Source of the DNA: Candidatus Uhrbacteria bacterium
GTDB taxonomy: Bacteria; Patescibacteriota; Patescibacteriia; GWA2-47-26
Assembly: GCA_016187515.1 (NCBI GenBank)
Contig: JACPJN010000006.1
Location: 128,856 to 192,855, forward strand
Reading direction: 5' to 3'
Length of the DNA stretch: 64,000 nucleotides
The position numbers and the translations under genes were made by a program. Numbering within the stretch: position 1 is the stretch's first letter; every line of letters begins with the position of its first letter. A model generated the notes under the pieces. That model was not told the origin of the DNA. It worked only from the letters and a program-made list of their open reading frames with translations, and searched no databases. Positions 1,620-55,230 of the stretch are shown here, piece by piece.

Positions 1620-2101
1620 CTGTGTACGAATTACGAATCTTGTTCGAACATTACGAATATGTCGGAAGGAAAGGTGAGAAATGAAAAGTTGGTTTTACCT
1701 GAGTTAAGTTATTCGATCATGGGTGCGATATTTGAAGTCAGCAATGAACTGGGCACAGGATATCAGGAAAAATACTACTATCGGGCAGTCAAGTCTGCAC
1801 TTGAAAAACGGGGACTTCAGGTAAAAACTCAAGTCTATTTGCCGATTGAGTTTCGGGATGCAAAAATCGGGAACTATTTCCTTGATTTCTTGATTGAAGG
1901 AAAGATTGTGCTGGAATTAAAAATAGGAAAAAGATTCAAAAAGTCCGACTTTGATCAGATACAAGCCTATCTGAGGGCAACCAACACACCATTAGGTATA
2001 ATCGTGCGTCTTGATAAAGATGGTGAGGTGGTGTATCATCGGGTACTTCCACCTAACAAAGATTCGTAGTATTCGTAAAGCGATTCGTAATTCGTACACA
2101 G
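1620..2101 (+). mobile_element. GxxExxY gene cassette bounded by 20-bp inverted repeats built of TACGAAT units
   Basis: CTGTGTACGAATTACGAATC (1620-1639) is the exact reverse complement of 2082-2101; fills the dprA-topA gap. Confidence 0.7.
1659..2069 (+). CDS. GxxExxY protein (PD-(D/E)XK nuclease-like)
   Basis: GYQEKYY motif, plus DFLIEGKIVLELK and QIQAYL. Confidence 0.9.
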   Translation: MSEGKVRNEKLVLPELSYSIMGAIFEVSNELGTGYQEKYYYRAVKSALEKRGLQVKTQVYLPIEFRDAKIGNYFLDFLIEGKIVLELKIGKRFKKSDFDQIQAYLRATNTPLGIIVRLDKDGEVVYHRVLPPNKDS

Positions 2102-2102
2102 T

Positions 2103-4301
2103 ATGAAGCTGATTATTGTAGAGTCGCCCACAAAGGCGAAAACATTGTCTAGATTCCTCGGGCCTGACTTCACGGTCAAATCCTCCATGGGCCATATTCG
2201 GGATCTGCCCAAAAGCAACAAAGACGCCGTGGATATCGCGGCCGGCTTTGTGCCGCGCTACCAGATCTTAAAAGAAAAGCAAAGGGTTATCGGGGAGCTG
2301 CGCGAGGCCGTAAAAAAGGCGGATGAAGTTATTCTCGCGCCCGACCCGGATCGCGAAGGCGAGGCGATCGCTTGGCATTTGAAGGAAACCATTGGCCTGA
2401 AAAACCCAAAGCGCAGTGTTTTTCATGAAATAACCCAGCGCGCCGTCTCTGAAGCGCTGGCTCATCCGCGCACGATTGATGAAAAGTTAGTCAGCGCCCA
2501 AGAGGCGCGGCGCGTGCTGGATCGCCTTTTCGGGTATGATCTTTCCGGTCTGATTTGGAAAAAAGTGCGCTATGGACTTTCGGCCGGGCGGGTGCAATCT
2601 CCGGCTTTGCGCATCCTGATGGAGCGCGAGCGGGAGATCCGCGCCTTTGTACCGGAAAAATTCTGGGTCGTCAGCGCCAATCTCAAAACCACCAAAGGAG
2701 TATCCTTTACGGCTACTTGCGTGGAGGAACCAAAAACCGGTGAGGAAGCGGAGGCCATCGTGAAGGCGGCGCGCGCCGGCGCTTGGAGTGTTAAAGACGT
2801 GGAGGAGTCGCAGCAAAATCGCGCCGCGCGTCCGCCCTTTACTACTTCAACTTTACAGCAAACCGCGTCCACCCGCCTTGGATTTTCTCCGGCGCGCACC
2901 ATGCGCCTGGCGCAAAAACTCTACGAGGCCGGACAGATTACCTACATGCGCACCGACAGCGTACATCTGGCGGAGGAGGCGCAGAAAAATTTTATTGCGG
3001 TGATTAAAAAAGAATTCGGCGACAATTATGTTTCGCCGCAGCAATATATTACCAAGAGCAAGTCCGCCCAAGAAGCGCACGAAGCGATTCGTCCGACTGA
3101 TGGCGCAGTCCGCGCCTGTGGGTCAAATGCAGACGAGAAAAAATTGTACGCGCTGATCCGCGCTCGCGCGCTCGCTAGCCAAATGTCGGACGCTAGAGTG
3201 GCGCGCGCGAAAATAATCGCAAACGTTTCAAACGCGGCTATTCCGGACTTTTCAGCAAACGGTTCGCGGGTGATATTTGACGGCTGGCTTAAGGCCGACC
3301 CGGATGCCAAGGGCGTTGATGTCGAGCTTCCCAAAACCGCAAAGGGAGCAGCGCTCACGCTTATGGAGGCCAACTCCGAACCAAAAGAAACCCAGCCGCC
3401 CAACCGTTATACCGAGGCGGGACTGGTTAAAGAACTGGAAAAACGGGACATTGGACGGCCGTCAACCTATGCCTCCATCCTAAAAACGCTCGGGGACCGC
3501 GGCTATGTGGAAAAACAAAATCGCACGCTGCTGCCGACCGCGACCGGCGACGTAGTCAGTTCGTTTATTGAAGAAAATTTCGGCGACTACATCTCGGACA
3601 CCTTTACCGCGGAAATGGAAAACGAACTGGACGAAATTGCTGAAGGCAAGCGTGAATATGTAAAGACCCTAAAAGAATTTTACACTCCCTTCACCGCGGC
3701 GGTAAAGTCAAAATCCAAGATTCCAAAAATCACCAGCATGGGAGACGCGCCGAAAGAATTTCCCTGTCCGATCTGCGGCGGCCTGATGGAATACAAACTT
3801 TCGCGTACCGGACGTTTTATGAGCTGCAAACGCTTTCCGGAGTGTTTAGGCGCGCGGAAAGAAGACGGCGTAGAGATCGCGCCGCCAAAAGAGACCGGCG
3901 AGAGCTGTCCGGAGTGTAAAGCTGGCCAACTCATTGAACGCGAAGGACGTTTTGGACGCTTCATTGCTTGCGGCAATTATCCTAAATGCAAGTACATTAA
4001 AAAAGATCCGGCGGAAGAAGCCAAAACAAAAACCGGGGTGGCCTGTCCGGTGTGCAAAAAAGGCGAGCTGGTCGAGCGGCGCGGCAAATTCGGGCCGTTC
4101 TATTCCTGCTCCAATTATCCGGATTGCAAACACGCGATCAAAGCAAAACCAACCGGACGCCTCTGCACTCTGTGCGGCGCGCTTATGATGGAGGGAACCA
4201 AAACCATTCCGGAGCGATGCAGTAATAAGCAGTGTTCAATGCATAATCCCCTTAAACACAAGACGGCCCCAGTACCAAAGCCCGAAGAACATCTAGTGTA
4301 A
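2103..4301 (+). CDS. topA: DNA topoisomerase I
   Basis: IVESPTKAK, DPDREGEAI, SAGRVQS, ITYMRTDS, GRPSTYA and C-terminal zinc ribbons. Confidence 0.98.
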   Translation: MKLIIVESPTKAKTLSRFLGPDFTVKSSMGHIRDLPKSNKDAVDIAAGFVPRYQILKEKQRVIGELREAVKKADEVILAPDPDREGEAIAWHLKETIGLKNPKRSVFHEITQRAVSEALAHPRTIDEKLVSAQEARRVLDRLFGYDLSGLIWKKVRYGLSAGRVQSPALRILMEREREIRAFVPEKFWVVSANLKTTKGVSFTATCVEEPKTGEEAEAIVKAARAGAWSVKDVEESQQNRAARPPFTTSTLQQTASTRLGFSPARTMRLAQKLYEAGQITYMRTDSVHLAEEAQKNFIAVIKKEFGDNYVSPQQYITKSKSAQEAHEAIRPTDGAVRACGSNADEKKLYALIRARALASQMSDARVARAKIIANVSNAAIPDFSANGSRVIFDGWLKADPDAKGVDVELPKTAKGAALTLMEANSEPKETQPPNRYTEAGLVKELEKRDIGRPSTYASILKTLGDRGYVEKQNRTLLPTATGDVVSSFIEENFGDYISDTFTAEMENELDEIAEGKREYVKTLKEFYTPFTAAVKSKSKIPKITSMGDAPKEFPCPICGGLMEYKLSRTGRFMSCKRFPECLGARKEDGVEIAPPKETGESCPECKAGQLIEREGRFGRFIACGNYPKCKYIKKDPAEEAKTKTGVACPVCKKGELVERRGKFGPFYSCSNYPDCKHAIKAKPTGRLCTLCGALMMEGTKTIPERCSNKQCSMHNPLKHKTAPVPKPEEHLV

Positions 4302-4498
4302 TTGTTGGCCATACGCTCGGATGTCGCCTACGGCTTCAATCTTTTTTAGATAACGTTCTGCGCTCGGCTTGGTACGGGACACGTCATTTGGTTTGCTTCG
4401 CAAACCAAATGACGGCCGGACACGCTAGCCCCTAAAACCAATGGTAATAAGAAGGCGCGCGCCGACCGCCGAGACCAGTATATCCGGCCTTCCCCCAC

Positions 4499-4527
4499 TT
4501 GACAAGTTTTTAGTCAAGTTGTATGAT
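4499..4527 (+). promoter_or_regulatory. Sigma70-type promoter
   Basis: TTGACA-N17-TATGAT. Confidence 0.55.
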
Positions 4528-4559
4528 GGGTTTGGTAATAGGAAGTTCCCCAAAAACCT

Positions 4560-4601
4560 GAAACACCCCATGATGTTAGCCATCGGGGGTGTTTCGTTTT
4601 T
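4560..4601 (+). terminator. Intrinsic terminator hairpin
   Basis: GAAACACCCC...GGGGTGTTTC followed by GTTTTT. Confidence 0.55.
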
Positions 4602-4657
4602 AAAAAAAGGGGTCCTCGTGCGCCGCGCGAGTGTATCGCACAGACACTGGAGAACCC

Positions 4658-5209
4658 TTACTTCTCGGCTGAAGAGACGCAGTTCAGCACACCCCGCCAG
4701 GTGGATTCCTGAAAGACCCCATCGGAAATCCCGCCCCACCGCGCAAGCGCTTCCTCTTCAGGACGAAACAGAATCCGTACCGGAACGACGTTGCGCATGT
4801 AATAGAGCACGTCCGGTCGGTCGTCAACGAAGTGCGTGAGCCGGAGCGACTGCGCAATCTTTGCCTTCGCCTCAAACGTGCGGCAAAAGATCGCGTGATC
4901 TTGGAGCACATCGGTCGCTCTATAGAAGCCGCGATCAATGAGCCACATCCGCACCTTTTTCTCGGTCATCTGACTGCACGCCGAGACAAGGTAGATGTTT
5001 TCCGCTCCAAAGCGTTGGACAAGGCGGGCGATTGCCCGAAACGCTCCGGGTACCGCCGGAATTCCAAAGAAGCTTTCCTTACGACGCACACCCGTTACCG
5101 ACCGAAGCATATCTTCGCGGTTCCCGTCAATGATAACCCCACCAATGTCAATCCCGGATCTCCTGCGCCTGCGCTCATGCCGCCGATATCTAACCCTAGG
5201 CCGGATCAC
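4658..5209 (-). CDS. HAD-superfamily (5'-nucleotidase-like) protein
   Basis: GIDIGGVI and THFVDDR motifs. Confidence 0.7.
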   Translation of the reverse strand: MIRPRVRYRRHERRRRRSGIDIGGVIIDGNREDMLRSVTGVRRKESFFGIPAVPGAFRAIARLVQRFGAENIYLVSACSQMTEKKVRMWLIDRGFYRATDVLQDHAIFCRTFEAKAKIAQSLRLTHFVDDRPDVLYYMRNVVPVRILFRPEEEALARWGGISDGVFQESTWRGVLNCVSSAEK

Positions 5210-6105
5210 GTCCCACCTCTGGGCGAACCCTTAATCCTCTCCAGGCAGAGCTTGATGCCCGCCGGGCTTTTCGCGCACACTACGAACTGCGTACCGTCCA
5301 TCGGCAAACTCTCGCCAACCGAGGAAAGCGTGATACCGGCCAGTGCACCGCCGAGCTCTCGACTGATAAACTCCTCAATCGCGTCATCCCGGTCAATGAA
5401 AATAACCGACATTCCCGCCTGAAGCGCGGTCATCCCCATCACTAGGTTATTTTCAAGCACCACACACCGGTCCACCGCGGATTGCAACTTCTTCGCAATC
5501 GCGATCCAGAAATCCGGGTGCGATTTGGGCGGTCCCACCTGTTCGCTGATAAACACACGAACAAACAGATTCATTGGTGCGTTTTGTTCGCGCAGCAGCT
5601 GCTGCGCGAACTCCGAGGAACGCGCTGTGGTCAGGCACAACATCCACCGCCCATCCTCATCAACCAGCCATTGGACCAGTTCCCTCATCTGCGGCGTCAG
5701 GATATAGGGTGGACGAGGCGCATCTCGCCGCAACTTCCGAACCTGGCGCGCAAGCCGCCGACGGCCCCCTAGATCCAGACTGTTCACAAATGCCGGAGCC
5801 ACTTTCCGAAGTAGACGAAGATTGACTCGCTCCTGGAATTTCTTTTCCGTAACAACCTTGCCACCTTCAATTTTGGAGGTGCTAAGCTCAAGACGCATCC
5901 TCAAATCCCAGAATCCATAAGGGTCCAAAAGGGCTTCCTTGATCTGGGGTGGAAGCGCCCCGGCTTGCGCAAGAGCCGTACGAATCATCCATACCCACTG
6001 CTGCTTCCCCGCGAGCGCAATTTCACGCTCCTGCTTCCCTTCAAGTGTAAGGAACACACCGTGCACGTCCATGAAAAGGACGTCACGGCGCTGCTGCTGC
6101 GACAT
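5206..6105 (-). CDS. Divergent HAD-like hydrolase
   Basis: LFMDVHGV, PKSHPDFW, VVLENN; AGGAGG before ATG at 6105; overlaps the next gene by ATGA. Confidence 0.6.
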   Translation of the reverse strand: MSQQQRRDVLFMDVHGVFLTLEGKQEREIALAGKQQWVWMIRTALAQAGALPPQIKEALLDPYGFWDLRMRLELSTSKIEGGKVVTEKKFQERVNLRLLRKVAPAFVNSLDLGGRRRLARQVRKLRRDAPRPPYILTPQMRELVQWLVDEDGRWMLCLTTARSSEFAQQLLREQNAPMNLFVRVFISEQVGPPKSHPDFWIAIAKKLQSAVDRCVVLENNLVMGMTALQAGMSVIFIDRDDAIEEFISRELGGALAGITLSSVGESLPMDGTQFVVCAKSPAGIKLCLERIKGSPRGGT

Positions 6106-6251
6106 GGCGTCCTCCTTTCTTTCCCACAAAATATGGGATACTCTGTACGTGTAAACTCACCATATCTGATCTGGAGAGAATTGTCAAGCACTCTTGAATT
6201 TATAGAAATCCTGTGGTATTCTCCAATTATTAAGATCTTAGCGATAACTCT

Positions 6252-7763
6252 ATGTACACTGCGGCCGAGGAAATGCTCCGCGATGTCAAAAAACTGCTTA
6301 AAGAAAACCATCCCAACGCTAACCTAGAGACCGTTGAGCGTGCCTACGAATTTGCCAAGGAAGCGCACGCGGGGCAATTCCGGACCAGTGGAGGACCCCA
6401 TATTGATCACGCCATGGGAACGGGAAAACTGCTCGCCAGCTGGCGCATGCCTGACCATATCGTGGTGGCCGGAATACTCCACGATATTACGGAAGACACG
6501 CCCTACACCTTAAAAGATCTGGAGACGCGGTTTGGGAGAGATGTGGCCGATATCGTGGAAGGAGAAACAAAAATCAGCGCGCTCAAATATCGTGGGCGAG
6601 AGCGGTACGCGGAAAATTTGAGGAAGATGTTTCTAGCCATCGCCCAAGATGTACGCGTAGTAATTGTGAAGTGCGCGGATCGGATTGATAACCTCAAAAC
6701 GCTGAATTTCTTCCCGGAGAATAAGCAAAAACGCATCGCGTTTGAAACCATGGAAATCTACGCGCCGATTGCGAGCCGCTTGGGGATGGGGTTGATTCGC
6801 GGCGAACTGGAAGATCTCTCTTTTAAATATATTTATCCGGAGGAATATGAATGGGCGCTGGGACTCTTAGTGGAGCGCGTGCCGAAGAAAGAAGAGTACC
6901 TTGACCACCTCAAGGGAATCATCGCGGATGATCTCAAAAAAAACCAAGTAAACCCGATCTCTATCCATGGCCGCGTCAAGCACCTATACAGTTTATACAA
7001 AAAGCTCCTCAAACGCGATCGAGATATTGAGAAAATCTACGATTTGGTGGCTCTGCGCCTCATCGTACCAGCGGTACAGGACTGTTATACCGTGCTCGGG
7101 GTAATCCACCAACGGTGGACCCCGCTCAAAGGCCGCATCAAGGACTACATCGCGCAGCCCAAACCCAACGGCTATCAGTCGCTGCACACCACGGTCTTTT
7201 GCGAAGACGGAGAAATTGTAGAATTCCAAATCCGCACCCAAGAAATGCACGAGGAAGCCGAATTTGGTATCGCGGCCCATTGGTTCTATGCCGAGCGCGG
7301 TAAAACTTCGGAAAACGCGCAAAAAATCAATCACCACCTAAAATGGCTAAAGGAGCTGGTGGAAATACAAAAAAATATCCAAGATCACACCAACTTTCTT
7401 AAAGCCCTGGAGTCCCTCAAAATTGATTTCTTCCGCGACCGCATCTTTGTGTTTACTCCCAAAGGAGACGTTATTGATCTGCCGGAGGGCGCCACCCCGA
7501 TCGATTATGCCTACGCCATCCATACCGAGGTTGGCAACCATTGTTCCGGAGCGACGATCAATGAGCAAGCCGTTTCGCTCAAAACTACCCTGCAATCCGG
7601 CGATGTGGTTGAAATTACCACTGATAAAAACCGCAAAGGTCCTGCGGCGGACTGGTTGGAATTAGTCAAGACCGCGCATGCGCGCAGTAAAATAAAAGAG
7701 AATCTTAAAAAAACCCGGCTCGCCGGGTGGGCCAGAATTAGAGATCTGGCTAGAAAACACTAG
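6252..7763 (+). CDS. rel: RelA/SpoT family (p)ppGpp synthetase/hydrolase (HD, synthetase, TGS; no ACT domain)
   Basis: LHDITEDT, GRVKHLYS, PKPNGYQSLHT, EFQIRT, TPIDYAYAIHT. Confidence 0.95.
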   Translation: MYTAAEEMLRDVKKLLKENHPNANLETVERAYEFAKEAHAGQFRTSGGPHIDHAMGTGKLLASWRMPDHIVVAGILHDITEDTPYTLKDLETRFGRDVADIVEGETKISALKYRGRERYAENLRKMFLAIAQDVRVVIVKCADRIDNLKTLNFFPENKQKRIAFETMEIYAPIASRLGMGLIRGELEDLSFKYIYPEEYEWALGLLVERVPKKEEYLDHLKGIIADDLKKNQVNPISIHGRVKHLYSLYKKLLKRDRDIEKIYDLVALRLIVPAVQDCYTVLGVIHQRWTPLKGRIKDYIAQPKPNGYQSLHTTVFCEDGEIVEFQIRTQEMHEEAEFGIAAHWFYAERGKTSENAQKINHHLKWLKELVEIQKNIQDHTNFLKALESLKIDFFRDRIFVFTPKGDVIDLPEGATPIDYAYAIHTEVGNHCSGATINEQAVSLKTTLQSGDVVEITTDKNRKGPAADWLELVKTAHARSKIKENLKKTRLAGWARIRDLARKH

Positions 7764-7770
7764 GATTTAT

Positions 7771-8766
7771 TTAAGAATCCTCTCCGGCAAGTTTTCCAAG
7801 GATCTCCGCGTAATCCTCGTCCGAGTAAAAATTCATGGTAATGCGGCCGCGTCCTCCCCGTTTTTCGATTTGCACTTTGGTGTTGAACTTTTCGCGCAAG
7901 CGCGCCTCATCCGCGGCAACCGCCGGATCTTTGATTCCGACCCGTTTTTTTCTTACCTGCGGAGCCGCGAGCGTTTCCGCGGCTTTCACCGTCAACCCCT
8001 GCTCCAGAATGGTCCGGAATATCTCCTCCCGCACTTTGGGATTATCCAAGGTGAGCAACAGTCGAGCATGGCCGATCGAAAGGCGCCCGGAACCGATCGC
8101 TTTTTGCATCTCGCTTGAGAGTTCAAGCAAACGCAGCGTATTGGAAATTGTCTCGCGGCTTTTACCCATTTTTTTAGCGGCTTCCTCTTGAGTCAGACCA
8201 AACGCCTCAATCAATTCGCGGTACCCTTCGGCCTCTTCAATGGGATTCAAATCCTGACGCTGGAGATTTTCGATCAGCGAAAGTTCCAAGCGCTCCAGAT
8301 CATCAGCATGGCGCACGAGGACCGGAACTGCCGCAAAATTAAGATTGCGCGCCGCGCGCAGACGGCGCTCGCCGGCAATCAGCTCAAAACGCCCATCGTT
8401 TTTTTCCGTAACAATCAACGGCTCCAGAATTCCGTGTTTTTCAATGGAGGCCTGGAGCTCGGCCAGTTTTTCCGGATCGAAAAAAGTCCGCGGCTGGGCC
8501 GGATTGGAATCCACTAAATCCGGAGCGACCGTAAGCACGCGCAAAACATCTCCTTCCTTCGCATCATGGGGAGGCAATACCGGACCCCCTCTAACTCCCC
8601 TGCCCAACAATTTCCCCCCCTGCCCGCCGCCTCTGGCGAGCCTCGCCTCTGGCGGGAGGGGGGGTTCGGGGGGGTGGGAGGGAGGGGTGGGAGCGGGGGG
8701 GTGGGAGATGGGGGTGGGCACACCGCCCGGAATCAATGATCCTAAACCTTTACCAAAAGTATCCAT
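7771..8766 (-). CDS. parB: ParB/Spo0J partition protein, with a palindrome-derived insert near the N-terminus
   Basis: GKGLGSLI, QPR, LIAGERRLRA, ENLQRQDLNPIEEA; start MDTFG at 8766. Confidence 0.95.
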   Translation of the reverse strand: MDTFGKGLGSLIPGGVPTPISHPPAPTPPSHPPEPPLPPEARLARGGGQGGKLLGRGVRGGPVLPPHDAKEGDVLRVLTVAPDLVDSNPAQPRTFFDPEKLAELQASIEKHGILEPLIVTEKNDGRFELIAGERRLRAARNLNFAAVPVLVRHADDLERLELSLIENLQRQDLNPIEEAEGYRELIEAFGLTQEEAAKKMGKSRETISNTLRLLELSSEMQKAIGSGRLSIGHARLLLTLDNPKVREEIFRTILEQGLTVKAAETLAAPQVRKKRVGIKDPAVAADEARLREKFNTKVQIEKRGGRGRITMNFYSDEDYAEILGKLAGEDS

Positions 8767-8771
8767 ACGTT

Positions 8772-8906
8772 TGAAAAATTCCAAATTACAAGCACCAAAA
8801 CACAAGGAAATTCCAAGCTCCAAATTACAAATTACCAACGTTTGAAATTTTGATATTGAAATTTAGGATTTATTTGTAATTTGTGATTTGTAATTTGGTA
8901 TTTTGG
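8772..8906. repeat. Bipartite inverted array of 7-mers (AAATTCC/AAATTAC, then TTTGTAA/TTTGGTA)
   Basis: Degenerate 7-bp periodicity, left half complementary to right half; same family as the insert in rnpB. Confidence 0.75.
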
Positions 8907-8911
8907 TAACA

Positions 8912-9679
8912 TTAACGTCCACACACCGCCGCCACTTCGCTCGCTAGGTGTAAATATGCCTTTGCCCCCCGCGAGCTTGGCGCGTGTTCAAAAATAGTTT
9001 TTCCGCTCGCCGGTGCCTCGGCCAACTTCACCGTCCGCGGCACCACGGCCCGAAATATTTTGCGCGGAAAATAGCGATACAGTTCAGAAAGCACTTCGTT
9101 GGAAAGCCGCTGGGCCCCGGCATACATGGTAATGAGCGCGCCCAGTACCTGGAGATTTTGATTCAACCCCTGTTGTACCAACTGAATTACGGAAATCAAT
9201 TGTCCCATGCCCTCGAGCGCGAAATACTCGGCTTGGACCGGAATCAATACCGCGTCCGCGGCGACTAAAGCGTTGACTACTAAAATTCCCAGCGAGGGCG
9301 GACAATCAATCAGAATATAATCGTAGGAAACCCGAGCCGGCTCCAGCGCTTCCTTTAGTTTGTATTCCCGTCCGGTGACGTTCACGAGTTCCACGGTCGC
9401 GCCGGCCAGATCCATGGTCGCGGGCGCCAAAGCTAGACGCGGAATACGCGTAGGTAAGATAGTGGCCGACAAAGACGTGCGGCCCACCAGCGCGTCGTAA
9501 ACCCCGGTTTTCAAAATCGCGCGATTGGCGCCGAGGCCGGCGGTCGCGTTTCCCTGCGGATCAAAATCCACTAAAAGCACCGCGGCGCCGTTTGCGGCCA
9601 ACTGTGCCCCCAGGTTAATCGCGGTGGTGGTCTTCCCCACGCCGCCTTTTTGATTGACGACAGCAATAATCTGTGCCAT
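8912..9679 (-). CDS. parA: ParA/Soj ATPase
   Basis: NQKGGVGKTTT, DFDPQGNA, IDCPPSLG. Confidence 0.97.
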   Translation of the reverse strand: MAQIIAVVNQKGGVGKTTTAINLGAQLAANGAAVLLVDFDPQGNATAGLGANRAILKTGVYDALVGRTSLSATILPTRIPRLALAPATMDLAGATVELVNVTGREYKLKEALEPARVSYDYILIDCPPSLGILVVNALVAADAVLIPVQAEYFALEGMGQLISVIQLVQQGLNQNLQVLGALITMYAGAQRLSNEVLSELYRYFPRKIFRAVVPRTVKLAEAPASGKTIFEHAPSSRGAKAYLHLASEVAAVCGR

Positions 9680-9771
9680 AATATCCCTATGCTTTCTCCC
9701 CCTTAGGATAAGGGGGAGTCAGAAGGGGTTACGACAACAATCGTATCACAAAATAATAGAGTACACAACCT

Positions 9772-9858
9772 GCCGGGATGGTGAAACTGCCAGACACGCG
9801 GGACTCAAAATCCCGTGACCGCAAGGTCGTGAGGGTTGGACTCCCTCTCCCGGCACCA
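9772..9858 (+). tRNA. tRNA-Leu(CAA) with non-canonical C19/G56
   Basis: Acceptor GCCGGGA/TCCCGGC+ACCA; anticodon arm CGGGA-CTCAAAA-TCCCG; long variable arm; T arm GAGGG-TTGGACT-CCCTC. Confidence 0.85.
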
Positions 9859-12899: not shown

Positions 12900-12909
12900 A
12901 GCAATTGAA

Positions 12910-12970
12910 GCGAGACAAGTAAATCAGGTAAAGCAAGCAAGTCAAGTAACTTGATTCACTTGATTTACTT
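12910..12970. repeat. GTAAATCAA 9-mer inverted array
   Basis: GCGAGACAAGTAAATCAGGTAAAGCAAG...CTTGATTCACTTGATTTACTT. Confidence 0.8.
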
Positions 12971-13513
12971 ATTTTGCTCAAGCAAAGTGGTCATCACCTC
13001 ATGTCCGTGCAGCGCTCCGTAGTCCGGGAGCTCTTCCACCAAGCGGACCCCCAGATAGCGGAGAAAATCCATGCTCACCCGAATCCGATTTTCCTTACGC
13101 ACGGCATCATATTCTTCGTCAATCAGCCCGCGGATTAAGAGGTTGCGCAAAATCAGCCCGCAGCTGACCCCGCGGATAATCTCCAGCTCGCCTTTTGAAA
13201 TCGGGCCCCGATACGCGATCACGGTCAGGGTCTCCAATTGCGGACGCGTCAGTTCTCCGGCAAATTCCTCTTTTACAAAGGCCGCGACCACGGCCGCGGT
13301 TTCTCCCGCGGTCCCCATTTGCCAATTTTTACCGGTTGAAAAAATCTGCAATCCGCTGGCGCGCGCTTTGTATTCCTCCTGCAGTTCTTTTAAGGCCTCC
13401 CCGACCCGCGCTTCTTTTTCTCCGACAAATTCGGCGATCTTTTTTATGGTCATCGGCCGGCCGGCCACAAACAACAGCGCCTCAAGATTTGATTTAAGCG
13501 TCATAATTCGCAC
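12965..13513 (-). CDS. scpB: SMC-Scp complex subunit ScpB
   Basis: LEALLFV, LETLTVIAYRGPI, IRGV. Confidence 0.93.
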   Translation of the reverse strand: MRIMTLKSNLEALLFVAGRPMTIKKIAEFVGEKEARVGEALKELQEEYKARASGLQIFSTGKNWQMGTAGETAAVVAAFVKEEFAGELTRPQLETLTVIAYRGPISKGELEIIRGVSCGLILRNLLIRGLIDEEYDAVRKENRIRVSMDFLRYLGVRLVEELPDYGALHGHEVMTTLLEQNK

Positions 13514-13515: not shown

Positions 13516-13929
13516 CTACCTCTTTTTCTTAGGCAGATATTCTTCGTATTTTTTTCTTTCCGCCAGCTGCGCGTATTCTCGTTTGTAGTTTTTCAGCACA
13601 CCTTTCAAAATCACCGCAAACCAAGAAACGGTAATCAAAAAAATCAGCAGCGTCCACCCTCGCGCGGAAAGAATCACGGCGCCGACTTGTCTGGACCAAA
13701 TCAGTATCAGCATAAACGCCGCGAAAAACCAGAATGGACGGCTAAGTTTGGAAAGCCCGCGGGCCAGCGGCGGATTATCTTTTTTCCGGCGGCTTAATAT
13801 CTTAAAGACAATTCCCCCGCCAATAAACAAGGCCACGACAATAATCGCGGCAATAAAAGAAAACCGACGCAATGGCGGAGTATATACCGCAAACCAATAA
13901 GAGAGGTGCAATAGATTGGTAAATTGCAT
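13516..13929 (-). CDS. Hypothetical membrane protein
   Basis: Three TM segments ending in YLPKKKR; the ORF-track N-terminus is repeat-derived, so start taken at MQFT. Confidence 0.75.
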   Translation of the reverse strand: MQFTNLLHLSYWFAVYTPPLRRFSFIAAIIVVALFIGGGIVFKILSRRKKDNPPLARGLSKLSRPFWFFAAFMLILIWSRQVGAVILSARGWTLLIFLITVSWFAVILKGVLKNYKREYAQLAERKKYEEYLPKKKR

Positions 13930-14014
13930 GCGAGTAGGTAAATCAAGTAAATTAAGTAAAGCAAGTAAATCAAGGGCTTGATTCACTTGTCTCGCTTGAC
14001 TTGCATGATTTACT
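13930..14014. repeat. GTAAATCAA 9-mer inverted array
   Basis: GGTAAATCAAGTAAATTAAGTAAAGCAAGTAAATCAAG, then the reverse units CTTGATTCACTTGTCTCGCTTG. Confidence 0.8.
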
Positions 14015-14567: not shown

Positions 14568-14608
14568 ACGATTGCAGTAAAGCAAGTAAATCAGGTAAAT
14601 CAAGTGAA

Positions 14609-15028
14609 TCAAATGCTTGATTTACTTGACTTGCTCGTCTCGCCTGATTTACTTAATTGATGAGTATTATCCTTCTGACTTTGAATCCATCGCCGTAATT
14701 TTTTACTTACCTCCCCTCCAAGCGCCTCAATACTAGTATACTGTGCTTTATCAATATAGCCAAGCTCACATGCGACCATCAGCTGATATCGTACCTCCTC
14801 TAAGGAAGCATCGGCAATATTGTAAAAGTGGAGACTATCATATACTGACTTTCTGTGAAAGCCCTCTACAATATTGGATGCTACAGATAGCGCGGCACGA
14901 CGTAGCTGTGATACAAGGCCGTACATCTCATGTGGTGGAAACTTTGCAGTAAGGCGATACACTTCTACCACAAGTTGATGTGCTTTCTGCCACACCTGTA
15001 AATCCCTAAAGGTACTGATCTGTGCCAT
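14609..15028 (-). CDS. Four-helix-bundle protein (23S rRNA intervening-sequence protein family)
   Basis: FRDLQVWQKA, FPPHEMYGLVSQLRRAALSVASNIVEG; the C-terminal KSS repeats come from the flanking repeat. Confidence 0.93.
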   Translation of the reverse strand: MAQISTFRDLQVWQKAHQLVVEVYRLTAKFPPHEMYGLVSQLRRAALSVASNIVEGFHRKSVYDSLHFYNIADASLEEVRYQLMVACELGYIDKAQYTSIEALGGEVSKKLRRWIQSQKDNTHQLSKSGETSKSSKSSI

Positions 15029-15030: not shown

Positions 15031-15083
15031 AACCTGATTTACTTGATTTACCCGTGATTTACCTGTCTCGCTTGATTTACTTC
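15031..15083. repeat. GTAAATCAA 9-mer array upstream of the four-helix gene
   Basis: CCTGATTTACTTGATTTACCCGTGATTTACCTGTCTCGCTTGATTTAC. Confidence 0.8.
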
Positions 15084-15322
15084 AACCCAAACAACCTCCC
15101 AAAAATCGCCAAACCAATACTTTGCAAAATTCCGCTCATGTAGAAAAACGAGAGCAAGATGATCGCCACCCCCGCTAATTTATAAAATAGCCGCGAACCG
15201 CCTTCGGTTCCCAAATGCTGCTCGGCCCAAGCGACCGGGCCAAGCGAATTATATAATTTTTCCGAATAAATTACGATAAGCGCCCCGACCGCGGCTCCGA
15301 TTAACGCGAAAATATAACGCAT
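15077..15322 (-). CDS. Small hypothetical membrane protein
   Basis: Two to three hydrophobic segments; WAEQHLGTEGGSR. Confidence 0.75.
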   Translation of the reverse strand: MRYIFALIGAAVGALIVIYSEKLYNSLGPVAWAEQHLGTEGGSRLFYKLAGVAIILLSFFYMSGILQSIGLAIFGRLFGLK

Positions 15323-19428: not shown

Positions 19429-19676
19429 GCGTTTTCTCCTTTTTGCGCGGTTTAACGTTTGCGCGGTTTCACGCCCTATATTAATAACATATCCGCCGCG
19501 CTCTGTCAAGAATGTTTTCAAAAAAGCGAGGAATTTCTCCCCCTGCCCGAGGGGGAGATAAAGAGGGGGTGGGAGCCCAAAATGCCATTAGGAGAACCGT
19601 GTTTTGCGTATGATCCAAACAAACCCGGTTTACCCCGTTAGCAGCAGATCGCGATTCGCGAGCGCGGCTTCTAACG

Positions 19677-19708
19677 GGTAAATGCAGTGCGGCCGCACTG
19701 CATTTACC
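19677..19708. repeat. Perfect 32-bp palindrome GGTAAATGCAGTGCGGCCGCACTGCATTTACC
   Basis: Self-complementary; imperfect copies at 27236-27267 and 28037-28068. Confidence 0.9.
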
Positions 19709-19879
19709 GTTTGTTATTTTCTGTAAATTTTTGTTTTCCTGAATCACGGCTTCTTAAAAAAAGACCGCACGACCCTAAGAAAGGTGTGCGGGGCCCGCGC
19801 GAGAACGCACGCGCAGGCAAGATCGTCTCCGCCACTTCGAGGCGGCTTTCGCCTCTTCGGGGCGGGTTTGCGGAAAGAG

Positions 19880-23466: not shown

Positions 23467-23513
23467 ATATGATAATTTGACAATTAGCTTCGCGATAATT
23501 GGTGATTCGATAA

Positions 23514-23921
23514 TTAGCCGCTTAGCGGCGATGATTTGCGATTGGTATTGATTTGTTTGCGTTGGTAATGCGCCTCAATATAGCGATTAAGTTTGGGCGC
23601 CAATCCCTGTATCATTCCGTTACACTTCTGAAAAAATGCTTCCGCTATTATACCGCGCTCTTTCATAAGCCCCAACCAATGCAGTGTTTCATAAAGAGAA
23701 CCCCGTGCATTATATAAAAATTTTATTTTGTCTAGATAGTGAAACCTCCCATGGGCTTCTGCAATATTCGCGCCTACCGAATCAATCGCGGTAATCCACT
23801 GATCCCCGATAATTTTTCTTGTATGCCATTCAAATGTTTTAAATGTGTTCCAACTTTCGCGCGATAATTCCCGTGCAATATTGTAGACCTCAATTTTATG
23901 CAAATTAATTTCCCCCTGCAT
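23514..23921 (-). CDS. Four-helix-bundle protein (IVP family)
   Basis: IGDQWITAIDSVGANIAEAHGRFHYLDKIKFLYNARGSLYET. Confidence 0.9.
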   Translation of the reverse strand: MQGEINLHKIEVYNIARELSRESWNTFKTFEWHTRKIIGDQWITAIDSVGANIAEAHGRFHYLDKIKFLYNARGSLYETLHWLGLMKERGIIAEAFFQKCNGMIQGLAPKLNRYIEAHYQRKQINTNRKSSPLSG

Positions 23922-24021
23922 ATAAATTCAATTCTCCTATCATCCAATCACCCAATCTCGTCGGCTCCGCCGACCAATTATCGTTCGCGAAGCGAACAAA
24001 TTATCCAATTATCCAATCATC

Positions 24022-25797
24022 TCAATGCCTCGGCAACTCCACTCCTTTGCCGCCTTCGCCCATCTCTTCCGCCGAGAGCGGCGGGGGGCCGGAAAGCGGG
24101 AGTATAAAAATAAATGTTGAGCCCTGGCCGCGGCCGGGCGACTCGGCCCAGATTTTTCCGCCGTGTTTGTCAATAAACATTTTTGCAACGTGCAGACCCA
24201 GCCCGCTGCCCTCAATCGGCTCGCCTTCGCGCCGGCGCATCGTTCCGCTCGCCGCGCGCCTGAATTTTTGGAACAGCACCGCGATATCTTCCGGCTCCAA
24301 ACCGAGTCCAGTATCCTTCACACTCACCTTCACCCACCCTTGCGAATTATCTAATTGTCTAATCATCGAATTATCCAATTCACACGTTACAGTAATCGAT
24401 CCCTTCATCGTATACTTTATCGCATTATCAATAAGATTGACAATCACATGCCGCATTTTTTCCTCATCAAATTTAACCAGCGGAATCCCCTCCAATTTTC
24501 CCCTCTTTTCCAAGGAGGTTTTCCTCCCCTGCCCGAGGGGAGGCGAGGAAGGGTGGGAGGGGGTGGTTCGACCACCCTCAAACGTCAATTTCAACTTTTT
24601 CTGCGCCGCGCGCGGCTGATATTCCTCCACAATATCTTTGACCAACGCGCACAAATCCTGCTCTTTGAAATTATATTTCATCTTGCCCAACTCAATACGC
24701 GAAACATTCAAATACTCACCAATAAGATTTATAAGCCGCGTCGCGCTTTCCGCCATTTTTTTCATGGCATCAATCTGCCGCTGATCTTTAACCTCACCAA
24801 ACGTACCATCAAGCATAGCCGCCAGCCCCAACCGCACCACAGTTAACGGACTGCGCAACTGATGTGAGGCCATAGACAAGAAATCTGTCTTGGCCTGATC
24901 CAACTCCTGGAGCTTCGCATACGCCACCTCCAACTCATTCTTCAACCTCTCCATCTCCTCACGACGATCTACCTCACGAATAACACTTCGTATCAAAAGA
25001 TAACCAAAATAAAGAAACAGTACGAGCACTATGCTTCGGAGGAATGCCTCGAATCTCGTCTGTGAGAAAAATAACTGGAAAAACAGTACAATAAATATGG
25101 CAAATACTAGCACCTCCGTGGCAATGACCTTAATACGCAAAAGTTGATAGCGAAATACTCCTATCGCAACAAAGGTGGCAAACAATGGTACACTGAAGTT
25201 TAAAATAGGATATACATCTATCTCAAAGACCGGAAAAAATGATGGGGTACCACCCGCAAAACCAAGCCCAGCGCCTAAAAGAACGTATAGTATTTGTGTT
25301 CGTTTAGGTTCGACACTCTTCAAAAATGCCCTTACCAACCAATAATGGGCCATCAAAACTGCAACTACAAAGTAAGCAGTAAATGCAGAGTATAAAATGG
25401 TGGGTGGCGAATCATAGTAAAATTGTCCGAATGTGTAACGCACACAACAAATAAGAGCGCCAGTTAAGTTAGTCAATCCAAAAAGGATAGCTAGGGTGTA
25501 ATTTATTAATACAAGAAATCCTCGCTTCTTCTTATCGATAAAAACAAGCACGAAGTGAAAAAGAAAAGCCGGGATCATAATGACCCCAACGTGTGTAAGT
25601 CGCCATAAGAACAACGACTGTGACGGATCTTGTTCACGCGCGATAAAAAATCCCCCGATACCCCATAAGGAAACCACAAATGTAAACAAGGCAAGGAGCC
25701 AACGATCCTTTTCTCGTTGGGCATTGATAGCAATTAAGATGGCTAACGGGATAGAAATAACCGCTATCAAAATGCCATTCACAGCAAAAGCATTCAT
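24022..25797 (-). CDS. Multi-TM sensor histidine kinase with two repeat-derived inserts
   Basis: ASHQLRSPL, NLIDNAIKY, DTGLG, GSGLGL; N-terminal TM region. Confidence 0.93.
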   Translation of the reverse strand: MNAFAVNGILIAVISIPLAILIAINAQREKDRWLLALFTFVVSLWGIGGFFIAREQDPSQSLFLWRLTHVGVIMIPAFLFHFVLVFIDKKKRGFLVLINYTLAILFGLTNLTGALICCVRYTFGQFYYDSPPTILYSAFTAYFVVAVLMAHYWLVRAFLKSVEPKRTQILYVLLGAGLGFAGGTPSFFPVFEIDVYPILNFSVPLFATFVAIGVFRYQLLRIKVIATEVLVFAIFIVLFFQLFFSQTRFEAFLRSIVLVLFLYFGYLLIRSVIREVDRREEMERLKNELEVAYAKLQELDQAKTDFLSMASHQLRSPLTVVRLGLAAMLDGTFGEVKDQRQIDAMKKMAESATRLINLIGEYLNVSRIELGKMKYNFKEQDLCALVKDIVEEYQPRAAQKKLKLTFEGGRTTPSHPSSPPLGQGRKTSLEKRGKLEGIPLVKFDEEKMRHVIVNLIDNAIKYTMKGSITVTCELDNSMIRQLDNSQGWVKVSVKDTGLGLEPEDIAVLFQKFRRAASGTMRRREGEPIEGSGLGLHVAKMFIDKHGGKIWAESPGRGQGSTFIFILPLSGPPPLSAEEMGEGGKGVELPRH

Positions 25798-27007: not shown

Positions 27008-27235
27008 TGTCTCCTCCCCATCGGGATTGTTAAGTTGTTGATGAACCAACTTCCTCCTAACCTCTCCTCCTACCCCATTAAAGCACAAAATGGGGCTTTT
27101 GTCAAGTTTTGCACACGATGAACGCATCGAGGGGCGATGGGACCCCACACCGCCCGCCGGGGCGCCGGATTGACCACGCCAGAAAGATTGCGAAGGAAAC
27201 CATCGCAAAAACCTCCGCCACCCTCAACCAAATAC

Positions 27236-27267
27236 GGTAAATGCAGTGCGGCCGCACTTTGTTTACC
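27236..27267. repeat. Palindrome copy upstream of the PaaX/Cas2-like gene
   Basis: GGTAAATGCAGTGCGGCCGCACTTTGTTTACC. Confidence 0.85.
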
Positions 27268-27967: not shown

Positions 27968-28036
27968 GGGGACTGCTCCGCTGTACTCGCCTATCACACC
28001 AGCGTAAACCCTCAAGATAAACCCTCAAACAAACAC

Positions 28037-28068
28037 GGTAAATACAGTGCGGCCGCACGTTATTTACC
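28037..28068. repeat. Palindrome copy downstream of the PaaX/Cas2-like gene
   Basis: GGTAAATACAGTGCGGCCGCACGTTATTTACC. Confidence 0.85.
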
Positions 28069-28251
28069 GTTTATTTTTGACGGCAAGTTTTTGTTTTATG
28101 GTTTTATGGAAAGTACTCCAATCCGATTCTTGGTTATCCTGAATAACTCAATAAAAAGAAAAAAGCCCACGTGTGTTCAAGACACGCAGGCCAGAGCGTA
28201 CCGCCGCGAAAAGGCGGCTTCCCGCCTCCTCGTGGCGGGTTTGCAAAAGAG

Positions 28252-34760: not shown

Positions 34761-35942
34761 CTAGAGCATACTCCACGCGCGAAAAGTGTCAAGCATTTTC
34801 TGCGCTGATTTTTGCCAAGAAAATTCCTGCGCGCGGACGTAGCCGGCTTCAATGTAATGCCGCCGCACCTCATTGTCTTCCAAAAGCACCCGCATCCCCG
34901 CGGCAATTTCATCCGTTTTCCACGGACTGACCAGCACCGCGCCGTTGCCGCAAATCTCGGGCACGGAGGAGGCGGAGGAGGCCACGACCGGCACGCCCGC
35001 GGCCATGGCTTCGAGCGGCGGAAAACCAAATCCTTCATAAAATGAAGGATAAACAAAAAGACGCGCTCCGGCGTACAGGTCTATTTTTTGTTCCTCGGTT
35101 GGATTCTCGATTAAACGGATGCGCTCGCGCAATTTGCTTTGGGCAATACGTTTTTTTAAGCGCTTTGTATAAGGAGTGGCCAAACCGGCGATCCACAATT
35201 GCTCCCGCGGTTTCAGTGCCTCGTATGCGGCAATCAACCCTTCAATATTTTTCCGCGGCTCCAGCGCGCCGAAATATAATATGAAGTCATCAGTCATCGG
35301 TTCACAGTTCACGGTTTTAGTTTTAATGTGAACTGTTGACTGTGAACTATTGACTCCACCTCCGGGATAGATCACGCTGATCTTCTTCGGCGGTATTCCA
35401 TACGTCTCCATCAAATCGTCCTTGGTATGCCTCGACACCGCGATAATATGATCGGCGCGTTTCAAAAGCGCGCGCGGACCGATGGCGCGATGCCAAAGCC
35501 GGCTTTTCAGCGAAAAATGTTCAGGGAAATGTATAAACGATAGGTCGTGAATAGTTAGAATGAGCTTGGTGCGCGATGGAAGCGCGATGAAATTCAGGTT
35601 GGGCATGAAAAAAATATCTAGACCCCCTCTAACTCCCCCTCGGAGAGGGGGAGAAACGATACGATTTCCTCCCCTGCCCGAGGGGAGGTTAGGAGGGGTG
35701 GGAGCACCAAACACCTTCATCCCTACATTCAACGCCTTATTCGGCCATCTTGTGTGATACACGCGCGCATTTGGATATTCGGAAAACTCCGGCACGGATA
35801 ATTTTCCTGCCGCGTTGTACCACACCACATACTCATTGACGCGATCCAACTCAAAAAGCGCGCGCAGAAGATGATAAGTATACTGCCCCACACCGCTTCT
35901 GGGCGTACTCTGCAGCGCGCGGCCGTCAATTGCTATTCTCAT
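34761..35942 (-). CDS. Glycosyltransferase family 4 with two repeat-derived inserts
   Basis: EPRKN, YEGFGFPPLEAMAAG. Confidence 0.93.
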   Translation of the reverse strand: MRIAIDGRALQSTPRSGVGQYTYHLLRALFELDRVNEYVVWYNAAGKLSVPEFSEYPNARVYHTRWPNKALNVGMKVFGAPTPPNLPSGRGGNRIVSPPLRGGVRGGLDIFFMPNLNFIALPSRTKLILTIHDLSFIHFPEHFSLKSRLWHRAIGPRALLKRADHIIAVSRHTKDDLMETYGIPPKKISVIYPGGGVNSSQSTVHIKTKTVNCEPMTDDFILYFGALEPRKNIEGLIAAYEALKPREQLWIAGLATPYTKRLKKRIAQSKLRERIRLIENPTEEQKIDLYAGARLFVYPSFYEGFGFPPLEAMAAGVPVVASSASSVPEICGNGAVLVSPWKTDEIAAGMRVLLEDNEVRRHYIEAGYVRAQEFSWQKSAQKMLDTFRAWSML

Positions 35943-47862: not shown

Positions 47863-47877
47863 AGATTACAAATTGAT

Positions 47878-48038
47878 AATTATTCTAATTATCCTAATTG
47901 ATCTAATTATTCTAAACAATGTCCAAGCACCTCACGCCCAAGGCGGATGCGCCTGAGGCGCAAAATCCCAATTTTGGTTATTGGATGTTGGGATTTGTTT
48001 AGGTCAATTAGAGTAATTAGGTGAATTAGGTCAATTCT
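47878..48038. repeat. CTAATT-based inverted array with a 7-mer core
   Basis: CTAATTATCCTAATTGATCTAATT...AATTAGAGTAATTAGGTGAATTAGG. Confidence 0.7.
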
Positions 48039-53166: not shown

Positions 53167-54695
53167 TGAATATACGGAGATCGATTCTCCGTGGCCACGG
53201 AGAATCGATCTCCCGATTTTTCCTACTCCTTACTCCTTATTCCTTATTCCTAATTCTCACGCTTGCTCTACCAGCGCAAGCCCAATCCCTGCCCCAACTT
53301 AAAACCTTTTGCTTTACCCAAGACGAGTGCGTTTCCCCGCCCTACAGCGGCGAGGCCAAAGAAGCGCCGGAATGTCGTGACCAAGATCCCCGCTATGTCC
53401 AGGCCGGCTATCTTTACAACTGTTACGCCAAACAGCAGCCCATCCGCCTGGAGGTCGGGATTGGCCCGTATAAAGTCGCGGGCATTGAGGATTATATCCG
53501 CCGACTCTACATTTATCTCATTGGCATCTCCGGAATCGTGGTGGGCGTGATGTACACTTGGGCCGGCTTAAAATGGCTAACCTCGGGCGGAGCTCCGGAC
53601 AGAATCACGGACGCGAAAAAGAAAATCGGAAACGCCACGGTCGGGCTCGTGCTGCTGCTCTCCTCCTACCTGATTCTCCAAACCGTTAATCCCGCGCTCG
53701 TGCGTCTGCGTTTGCCGGCCCTGAAGATGCCCCGCCAGGTTCTCTTGGGGGACGACTTGTGTGTAAATCGCCCGGAATATCCCTGCGGCGGATTAAAATT
53801 GCGGCCATCGCTAAGCCAGGATGGGCTGGGTCAATGGCAAGTCGCTCTGCTCGATCCCCTGCTCCGGGACAGGAAATATCAATGTGATGACCCCAGTAAT
53901 GCGGACTTGGCGCGTAACCCGCCTTGCCAAGACGGAGTCGGCTCCGGCGCTTGCGTACCCCGCTTCTGTCCATTTCCGGGATGCTATACCCTGCTTGAGG
54001 ACCGGATTACTGAAGATGCTCAAGATGTTATCGAGGGCATCGACGAGTATCAAGAAGCTCGCGATGCTGGACTGAATGTTCCCACTGGAACGAGCGATGC
54101 TGAGGTTTTGGAGCTGATCACGACTTTCCGCGAACAAGCCAGCCAAAATCAACGGATGTGCGTTAAACCGGAACAGTGCGGAGGGTGCGCGGCCAATACT
54201 CCCTGGGCGGTCTGTGTCTCGTCTGCTTGTCCCTGCATACTGGATGTAAAAGAAATTGGCGGGGAAGATCAGATCGTTTGCGCCGGCCGGCGAGGTGAAG
54301 GTCAGCCCTGCGAAAGGCATGAGCAATGCCAAGGCCAAGGCCAAGGCGGCCGAGCCGGACGCTGCAACTTTGGCCGCATACCTAATGAATGCACTCCGGA
54401 AGGAGGCGAGCCACCCGGACAGCCCTGCGATGTTGATGGCGATTGCGCAAGCGGGCTATGCAATGAGAATGCCGCGACAGATGTATGCGTTGCTCCGCAA
54501 TCGCTCCGCATTGGAGAGGATTGTTCTTCCAGCGAAGAGTGTGTTACCGGGGTTTGCGGATATGAAGGCGTGATTAGCACTCTTAATCCCGCCTCTGACC
54601 CAGTTTGTATGGCGGCAGGACAATGTAACGGTCTAACCCGAGTTGGCTGTCCTTGTGAAACTTCCATCAACTGCAATACGAATACCGGGGATTAA
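53167..54695 (+). CDS. Pilin-like (TrbC/VirB2-type TM hairpin) protein with Cys-rich domains; start uncertain
   Basis: AGLKWLTSGG...AKKKIGNATVGLVLLLSSYLILQTVNP; C-terminal C-x5-C repeats. Confidence 0.75.
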
Positions 54696-54841
54696 AGGTA
54701 ACTATATAGATATCGTCCTAAAGGCAATGAAAGAGCCCTTTTACGGGCTCTTTTAGTTATCCACCCTCGACATCTTGACACCGTTATGCTACCCTTGATT
54801 CTGGTTAAGTCATCCGTCGTCAGACATCTGTTCACCGTATT

Positions 54842-55207
54842 ATGCCGTTTAGATTTGAGGATTTGCGAGTATACCAGCGTACTCTCGAACTTGTTGACCA
54901 TATCTATGATGTTGTGGATAAATTCCCTACTCACGAACTATACACCCTCTCGTCGCAGTTACGGCGTGCTGTAATCTCAATTCTTTTAAACATAGCGGAG
55001 GGTACAGGACGAACCAACAAGGAATTCGCGCATTTTGTAGACATGTCAAGAACTTCTGCATACGAATGCATCGCATGTTTGGCGATCGCGCTACGTCGAA
55101 AATACATCACGCAACAATCCTATGAAACACTCTATGCTGAAATAAACGAGATTGTGAGAATGCTTAATGCCCTCAAAAATAGTATCAACAACAATACGGT
55201 GAACTGA
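54842..55207 (+). CDS. Four-helix-bundle protein (IVP family)
   Basis: [35 protein letters not shown]. Confidence 0.93.
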
Positions 55208-55230
55208 AGACGGTGAACTGATGTCTCAAT

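Follow-up and report, generated by a model that had tools for sequence, protein, structure and literature searches.

Five small genes in a 64,000-nucleotide stretch of the genome of an ultra-small bacterium, Candidatus Uhrbacteria GCA_016187515.1 (hereafter the window; G000:C4:128856-192855 in our numbering of genomes and contigs) each lie between copies of a repeat of their own (Table 1). They encode a GxxExxY protein of the PD-(D/E)xK nuclease family, three four-helix-bundle proteins of the IVP family (FHB1, FHB2 and FHB3) and a winged-helix plus Cas2-like protein ('mini-PaaX'). An earlier note, made from the letters of the window, had described the five brackets, and all of them are confirmed, four by inverted-arm scores and the fifth by two palindromes. 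In related genomes, high numbers of a repeat mostly go together with the matching gene, and the gene-plus-repeat units likely spread without a known transposase. We lean towards a slow selfish element as the reading of each module, which comprises a small gene with a family-specific repeat of 30-45 bp on either side, and we consider it probable that the cognate gene drives its repeat.

The layout is a property of these families. Inverted arms, called at z ≥4 against shuffles, flank 84/98 IVP genes and 15/20 GxxExxY genes, as opposed to 5/205 control open reading frames (ORFs) of at least 200 aa in the source genome G000 (1.215 Mb, 100% complete). The repeats are thus not equally frequent beside arbitrary genes. 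The IVP sample comes from 112 PF05635 matches listed in 40 relatives and G000, less duplicates, unfetched matches and three truncated loci; four truncated rows were dropped from the GxxExxY sample. Tandem arrays of period 6-11 number 203 in the 1.2-Mb G000 and 0 in a 400-kb Markov control, and a chance origin of the arrays is excluded. An unbiased scan for inverted flanks over 1166 called G000 genes returns the same families together with TrpR-like and GIY-YIG genes, and also some ordinary genes lying between two orphan copies.

We further note that each family has its own repeat grammar. GxxExxY arms are built of RCDRAW words at irregular spacing, IVP arms of periodic 7-11-mers, and mini-PaaX genes are accompanied by perfect 32-36 bp palindromes with a C-N4-G core, found downstream at 29/33 genes and usually matched by an upstream copy (the two at the window gene measure 34-39 bp). 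G000 contains 7 IVP, 4 GxxExxY, 8 PaaX_M and 5 DUF559 genes, whose flanks bear the repeats typical of their family. Relatives of FHB1 from Acidobacteria, Planctomycetes, Chloroflexi, Bacteroidota and other groups carry arms in 24 of the 29 scored (31 fetched). On the protein side, D and ExK residues are retained in GxxExxY proteins and a Cas2-type Asp motif is kept in 33/33 mini-PaaX relatives; mini-PaaX matches the Cas2 model TIGR01573 at 26.8 bits (cut-off 24.5), over model positions 4-40 only, and its Asp aligns with SSO1404 at E 0.27. Family profile matches reveal no recognised transposase domain in the five window proteins. A single-sequence fold model of the GxxExxY protein reached pLDDT 55 and was set aside.

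The junction between dprA and topA presents three states of one site: G000 has the full GxxExxY cassette, G003 a hairpin of 115 bp that belongs to the same word family and has no gene, and G002 6 bp. At the FHB1 site, G004 has the gene and G001, G003 and G005 lack it; at the FHB3 site, G003 has FHB3 and G002, G004 and G005 lack it. Empty sites, which the earlier note had proposed to look for, are thus found in same-family genomes for the GxxExxY site and two IVP sites. Genome-wide, the TACGAAT family forms 32 clusters, including the two arms of the cassette itself, where two Markov genomes give 0 and 1; none of the gene-less clusters falls inside the window. About 14 gene-less two-armed copies of 76-94 bp share the termini and polarity of the 480-bp cassette and often lie 1-9 bases from a start or stop codon, and no target-site duplication is visible by eye in the flanks of 17 paired rows (two of them nested pairings). 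The two-armed 9-mer clusters have the polarity of the FHB1 cassette in 28/28 cases, with 0 reversed.

The surroundings of topA are an apparent hotspot. Upstream of topA, at least seven other families (L153, L158, L161, L162, L164, L165, L171) have gene-less tandem arrays of differing units, and in G003 an IVP gene stands directly behind topA. Elsewhere, at G000:C7:68961-69287, a GxxExxY domain is contained in a 558-aa open frame, and the downstream arm of the domain continues in frame into what looks, by a motif, like MurB.

Gene-less copies of four of the five families also occur within the window, as had been claimed: three of the 9-mer family and one each of the 8-mer, GTGAAC and palindrome types (Table 1). 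The families of FHB3 and FHB2 are small and degenerate, with 0 and 1 strictly matched arrays, respectively. Behind the methyltransferase gene that precedes one of the window's two-armed 9-mer copies, G003 likewise has a 9-mer array.

Across genomes, the number of gene-less repeats follows the cognate gene, a relation that the earlier note had proposed to test. Array density correlates with IVP number (rho 0.88) over 14 genomes that were selected for their gene counts, each represented by 57-200 kb except G000, which was taken whole; IVP copy number itself is patchy, from 0 to 13 genes per genome in the 40 relatives and G000. Four IVP-free genomes have 0 arrays in 634 kb and a fifth has 1 array in 57 kb. 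CGRYCG palindromes occur in three of the 14 sampled genomes, G000, G003 and G008, all mini-PaaX-rich. In a wider set of 251 genomes, where kin are non-independent and metagenome-assembled genomes may lack genes, a GxxExxY gene is present in 38/46 genomes with at least 15 CGAAT-word matches and in 30/205 others (odds ratio 28, or 12 after removal of own arms). The 9-mer pattern (GTAAATCAA) is present in 15/251 genomes, in 7/10 with a close FHB1 homolog and 8/241 without. Its top counts of 108, 30, 20 and 11 are those of the four genomes whose FHB1 homologs are closest (100, 81, 64 and 67% identity, three families); it must be set against this support that the arms of G000, G003, G004, G005, G010 and G033 match by construction, because the pattern was designed from them. 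Orphan units match the arms of their own genome over foreign arms in 5/7 genomes, namely G000 (65/187 vs 32.8 for random foreign arms), G018 (20/31 vs 8.6), G017 (8/14 vs 0.3), G027 and G032, and not in G003 and G008.

Several observations weigh against a gene-driven spread, and some of them suit a different explanation, in which a host process independent of the genes spreads the repeats and the genes are passengers whose flanks were converted to an abundant repeat family. Most orphan arrays of G000 (122/187) match no resident arm, all families accumulate together in G000 and G003, and own-arm matching gives no direction. The within-family contrast in CGAAT words, 23:3 raw, falls to 14:11 and loses significance once 6 matches per gene copy are subtracted. 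Repeat unit and protein do not co-segregate over whole trees (rho -0.026 for IVP, -0.076 for GxxExxY and 0.07 for mini-PaaX; the IVP tree is a quick one with 43/94 inner branches open). Furthermore, G008 reaches 8.4 arrays per 100 kb with a single IVP gene, and 8/46 CGAAT-rich genomes have no GxxExxY gene. Orthologous cassettes stay in place across genera, and four read runs (≤3 samples from 2 studies, contigs only, window 1-20000) contain no empty or excised allele that would indicate movement in populations; read joints skipping the genes have genome-level depth and fit gene-less copies elsewhere in the same genome. Array orientation has no bias with respect to replichore (leading or lagging strand), and the IVP and TrpR-like folds are not known to have a catalytic site.

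The passenger explanation nevertheless strikes us as improbable. It does not account for arms confined to these families, for a grammar that each family keeps across genomes and phyla, or for the lack of CGRYCG palindromes in 460 kb of IVP-rich genomes without mini-PaaX. Paralogs within one genome carry different arms, and Avd-like homologs beside reverse transcriptases (RTs) have none. As for the unmatched G000 orphans, 130 of the orphan arrays match some foreign arm; the unmatched ones fit repeats that outlast lost genes and equally fit an independent source.

The association of repeat with protein, which the earlier note had proposed to test by clade, holds at family level and at close range. 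Mean arm similarity is 0.30 between proteins at least 65% identical, 0.17 at 55-65% and 0.07 below, and near FHB1 the period is a clade trait, with relatives at 62-81% identity having mostly 9-mers and distant ones mostly 7-mers. Since similarity is confined to close proteins and no whole-tree correlation exists, units turn over faster than proteins. Close homologs lack a common neighbour in 92/95 IVP pairs, 25/25 GxxExxY pairs and 29/32 mini-PaaX pairs, a test weakened, to the detriment of mobility, by poorly conserved gene order between families. Movement appears slow because the exceptions that share neighbours are same-family orthologs. None of the three refutation tests preset in the earlier note, on clade association, arbitrary genes and empty sites, refuted its idea.

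Arrays also enter host genes. In G000, 116/196 arrays lie in long ORFs (≥450 bp, by rough gene calling and with a few ordinary codon repeats included), spread over 77 genes with up to seven in one gene. The 56 of these 116 that were comparable, given the 57-200 kb at hand per outgroup genome, were aligned to array-poor outgroups, whose distance tells against a firm reading: 15 change length by at most 3 residues although the arrays span 9-14 codons, 23 add at least 10 residues, and the remainder are intermediate or shorter. These alignments suggest that in-frame copies often replace host codons. At the rluD site of the one-armed 9-mer array, for example, G003 has a 7-mer array and G002 and G001 have plain sequence, at nearly equal length. 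Array cores have a median of 31-36 bp, and, with respect to stop and start codons, single arrays have a weak polarity (17:9 and 11:10). A 1146-aa gene, G000:C4:218669-222109, by eye apparently an aminoacyl-tRNA synthetase, holds seven in-frame arrays of several unit families.

How a cognate protein might spread its repeat can be outlined by analogy to Ssn and RAYT. The protein would recognise its own repeat, binding it in a single-stranded state, and thereby seed gene-less copies through the genome. Nuclease folds (GxxExxY, DUF559, GIY-YIG and perhaps the Cas2-like domain) would nick beside the repeat, and the IVP and TrpR-like folds, which are non-catalytic, would hold on to it and shield it. 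Pieces of single-stranded DNA 30-100 nt long could next anneal at the replication fork and be incorporated as the host replicates its DNA. The model for this is SPDIR, where, in the course of replication, stretches of genome are exchanged at microhomologies for single strands of 3 to ~100 bp (available text of bioRxiv 10.1101/2023.11.22.568220). Such patching would yield no target duplication, a fixed size range and replaced host sequence. The whole arm-gene-arm piece would move rarely, selection would leave copies that lie in the gap from a stop codon to the next start codon or in parts of proteins that tolerate them, and repeats would outlast their gene. As described there, SPDIR resembles the arrays in size and replacing character, and differs in being rare, sequence-nonspecific and without a dedicated gene, so its role here is by inference; we regard the single-strand patch step as tentative. 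Cognate recognition and fork uptake are extended to these families by analogy, and one mechanism may not hold for all of them.

A genuine rival, particularly for the mini-PaaX and TrpR-like genes, is that the arms act on RNA or transcription: IVP and GxxExxY arms would pair in operon mRNA so that the gene is looped or cut out, and mini-PaaX and TrpR-like proteins would be self-repressors with palindromic operators, a shared layout over separate mechanisms. In favour of it, the IVP and GxxExxY cassettes that were inspected share the orientation of the genes whose stop and start codons enclose them, the upstream palindromes are close to likely promoters, both PaaX and TrpR belong to repressor folds, and the IVP family was first found, as its Pfam name records, in 23S rRNA intervening sequences; the stability of orthologous cassettes also agrees with it. 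Left unexplained, however, are the 116 in-frame arrays, the palindromes inside ORFs (5/35) or between convergent genes (8/35), the near-identical palindrome copies at unrelated sites and the second palindrome behind the gene, and the patchy IVP copy number suits selfish elements better. We therefore hold this reading to be unlikely as a full account, while RNA pairing or repression may be how inserts are tolerated.

Even less probable, in our estimate, is that IVP acts like Avd of diversity-generating retroelements (DGRs), copying repeat RNA into DNA with a reverse transcriptase and overwriting targets. The earlier note had pointed to Avd, and the shared fold stands: IVP matches the Avd model NF033474 at 39.4 and 37.2 bits, under its cut-off of 80, and PF22296 also below cut-off. 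Replacement rather than insertion at many sites and RTs in 21/41 relatives are in line with such copying. The link goes no further than the fold: PF00078 has no match in G000 or in G018, the most IVP-rich relative, and copying by an RT was rejected for these two genomes; moreover, arrays are missing from genomes that have an RT and no IVP gene, G039 for example. Two PF05635 loci that do lie beside RTs (L029, L030; G034:C8, G023:C11) form a separate long branch without inverted arms; they are probably true DGR Avd genes and are a natural negative control for the arms.

Comparison with known systems gives the modules a place of their own. The idea of a REP/RAYT-like system built from non-transposase proteins stands in its layout (gene, arms and orphans); the protein as cause of the spread is a probable reading, and one mechanism common to all families a possible one. 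RAYT/REP/REPIN and TIRYT/TIRtron elements, in the available text of PMC3733652, which covers tyrosine transposases only, share the repeat-bracketed gene, two-armed gene-less derivatives, slow and largely vertical inheritance and occasional in-frame copies. The differences are that G000 has no HUH Y1 transposase (PF01797, 0 matches), for which reason a RAYT acting in trans was rejected, that the repeat grammar is another one and that many copies here replace host sequence. A published precedent that the earlier note did not name is Ssn/SRM: in the accessible part of PMC11893778, SsnA cuts single-stranded DNA at repeats flanking its gene, dispersed copies track a small single-domain non-transposase gene between its own repeats, and the authors liken NTS-ssnA-NTS to a mobile element. 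NTS is rarely in genes (2%) according to the same portion, as against the majority of arrays here. None of the five window genes is GIY-YIG, and instead of SRM hairpins they have tandem arrays or perfect palindromes; the published SRM pattern matches G000 10 times and shuffles 4 and 5 times, with no match at any of the window genes or at the contig C7 GIY-YIG gene.

The IVP modules have two further counterparts. Intervening sequences of rRNA carry an S23p/IVP ORF in the loop of a potential stem, and thus share with them the protein family and a gene in a stem loop; here the copies lie between protein genes, and the arms consist of periodic arrays, which occur repeatedly without the gene as well. 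The seven G000 IVP genes have protein-coding or, in one case, structural-RNA-like neighbours, no dedicated rRNA scan having been made. The other counterpart is the class of heptamer repeats known as STRR. Those of cyanobacteria, Bacteroidetes and Beggiatoaceae (TAACTGA) are, in the available text of PMC4679880, short 7-bp arrays, often just before start codons and sometimes in ORFs, for which that text gives no evident mechanism and does not mention four-helix or intervening-sequence proteins; the arrays here are tied to IVP genes.

Classical insertion sequences (IS) and miniature inverted-repeat transposable elements resemble the GxxExxY cassette and its 76-94 bp derivatives in their common terminal inverted repeats, and differ in their target-site duplications and transposase domains. 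DGRs are set apart by the Avd scores and the missing RT. For CRISPR Cas2, the model match and the Asp motif are present and the context is not: no other cas gene occurs among 56 window proteins scanned, and no CRISPR-like repeats among the 20 largest repeat families. PaaX repressors differ in that the full-length model TIGR02277 scores 19.4 bits against a cut-off of 264.55 and the window has no paa genes. The system works like RAYT/REP and Ssn/SRM, yet belongs to neither, nor to IS, DGR, CRISPR or PaaX systems. In the literature, mostly open-access and without supplements, we found no link of IVP, GxxExxY, DUF559 or PaaX/Cas2-like genes to flanking repeats; the supplementary tables of the Ssn paper could list other repeat-flanked families.

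The other families returned by the flank scan follow a similar plan. The most frequent centres of long palindromes in G000 are CGGCCG (20), CGATCG (15) and then GGATCC (8), other hexamers being far rarer. DUF559-type GC-rich hairpins are a sixth abundant family of the window, which the earlier note did not include, and hairpins of this type flank the five DUF559 genes elsewhere in G000. Two TrpR-like genes (G000:C4:19418-19780, matching PF01371, and G000:C7:57659-58282, labelled by resemblance only) each lie between their own ~30-bp palindromes, and two GIY-YIG genes (G000:C7:188709-189005, 98 aa; G000:C6:234124-234390, 88 aa) both have inverted arms, those of the former being of a GTCAT type that resembles Ssn/SRM without an exact match to the published pattern.

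Two ideas on the IVP genes were tried and rejected. The paralogous pair 22768-23466 / 29787-30500 is uninformative as an internal empty site for FHB2 because its upstream regions are unrelated. Unit count peaks at five for periods 7, 8 and 9, which recalls a five-subunit ring; we do not claim five units per ring, because core lengths (31, 31 and 36 bp; ~33 bp for 11-mers) fit a fixed length equally well. Apart from these modules, a long imperfect hairpin at 18577-18722, with no cognate gene identified, recurs at several G000 sites with extra read depth. Positions 19880-34745 hold a cluster of paralogous secreted-type proteins (M23, MopE-like, Kelch, Dicty repeats), a 300-bp block is 96% identical between 23124-23423 and 30143-30442, and 10707-10777 and 16868-16939, probably tRNA genes, draw many foreign contigs.

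Table 1. Repeat modules of the window and copies related to them, by family (positions counted from the first letter of the window).
Feature	Position	Strand	Evidence or remark
Complete GxxExxY cassette, 480 bp	1621..2100	+	from dprA stop to topA start
GxxExxY left arm; right arm	1621-1658; 2061-2100	+	inverted-arm z 13.1 vs shuffles
GxxExxY / PD-(D/E)xK nuclease-family gene, 136 aa	1659..2069 (ATG)	+	PF13366; TIGR04256 above cut-off
IVP gene FHB1	14609..15028	-	PF05635/TIGR02436; PDB 2gsc (five chains), E 1e-18
FHB1 upstream arm, 9-bp units of GTAAATCAA type	15032..15085	-	repeat search; inverted-arm z 10.6
FHB1 downstream two-armed 9-mer hairpin	14571..14655	-	first arm codes for the protein's C-terminus
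Gene-less two-armed 9-mer copy	12904..12980	.	between scpB and peptidase S11 gene
Gene-less two-armed 9-mer copy	13923..14014	.	behind methyltransferase gene
One-armed 9-mer array in frame in rluD	62267..62306	-	comparison with relatives
Two-armed 9-mer array	47877..48036	.	family flanking IVP gene G000:C6:76676 (outside window)
IVP gene FHB2	23514..23921	-	PF05635/TIGR02436
FHB2 upstream degenerate 8-mer arm	23940..24026	-	z 7.3
FHB2 downstream degenerate 8-mer arm	23470..23525	-	repeat search
FHB2-type 8-mer array in frame in histidine kinase gene	24345..24380	-	repeat search
IVP gene FHB3, directly before uvrA	54842..55207	+	PF05635/TIGR02436
FHB3 upstream arm	54805..54841	+	z 5.4
FHB3 downstream arm	55193..55229	+	inverted repeat with upstream arm
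GTGAAC-type two-armed array related to FHB3 arms	35300..35355	-	inside glycosyltransferase ORF 34761-35942
Mini-PaaX gene, 189 aa	27398..27967	+	PF20803
Mini-PaaX upstream palindrome, CGGCCG core	27234..27267	.	
Mini-PaaX downstream palindrome, CGGCCG core	28035..28073	.	
Gene-less copy of mini-PaaX palindrome	19672..19710	.	
DUF559-type GC-rich hairpin pair in frame in dprA	763..850	+	~30 extra residues, absent in G002, G019, G020
DUF559-type hairpin pair in frame in rluD	62855..62941	-	~31 extra residues, absent in G002, G001

New in this work are a test that sets several families of one genome side by side, the counts of repeats against genes over 251 genomes, and the series of full, gene-less and empty states at the dprA-topA site. 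The RAYT and Ssn principle is extended to unrelated folds, including folds without a known active site, and the own flanks of four large protein families of unknown function become ready-made candidate substrates. Taken to its widest, which we offer as a doubtful but possible joint reading, any small protein, with or without catalytic activity, could spread its own 30-45 nt binding motif by single-strand patch copying; IVP proteins would then be the source of bacterial heptamer repeats and rewrite segments of housekeeping proteins, and GxxExxY, DUF559 and mini-PaaX/Cas2-like proteins would be three large new families of site-specific single-strand nucleases with targets readable from their own flanks. 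If the nuclease members cut like Ssn, they would be a source of new sequence-specific tools for single-stranded DNA. The findings also suggest where the 7-9 bp tandem repeats of bacteria may come from, in a form that can be tested; the available text of PMC4679880 found no mechanism for them. For the organism itself, the process means that peptides derived from the repeats are written into 77 proteins, including tRNA-synthetase-like and repair proteins, in a genome of 1.2 Mb.

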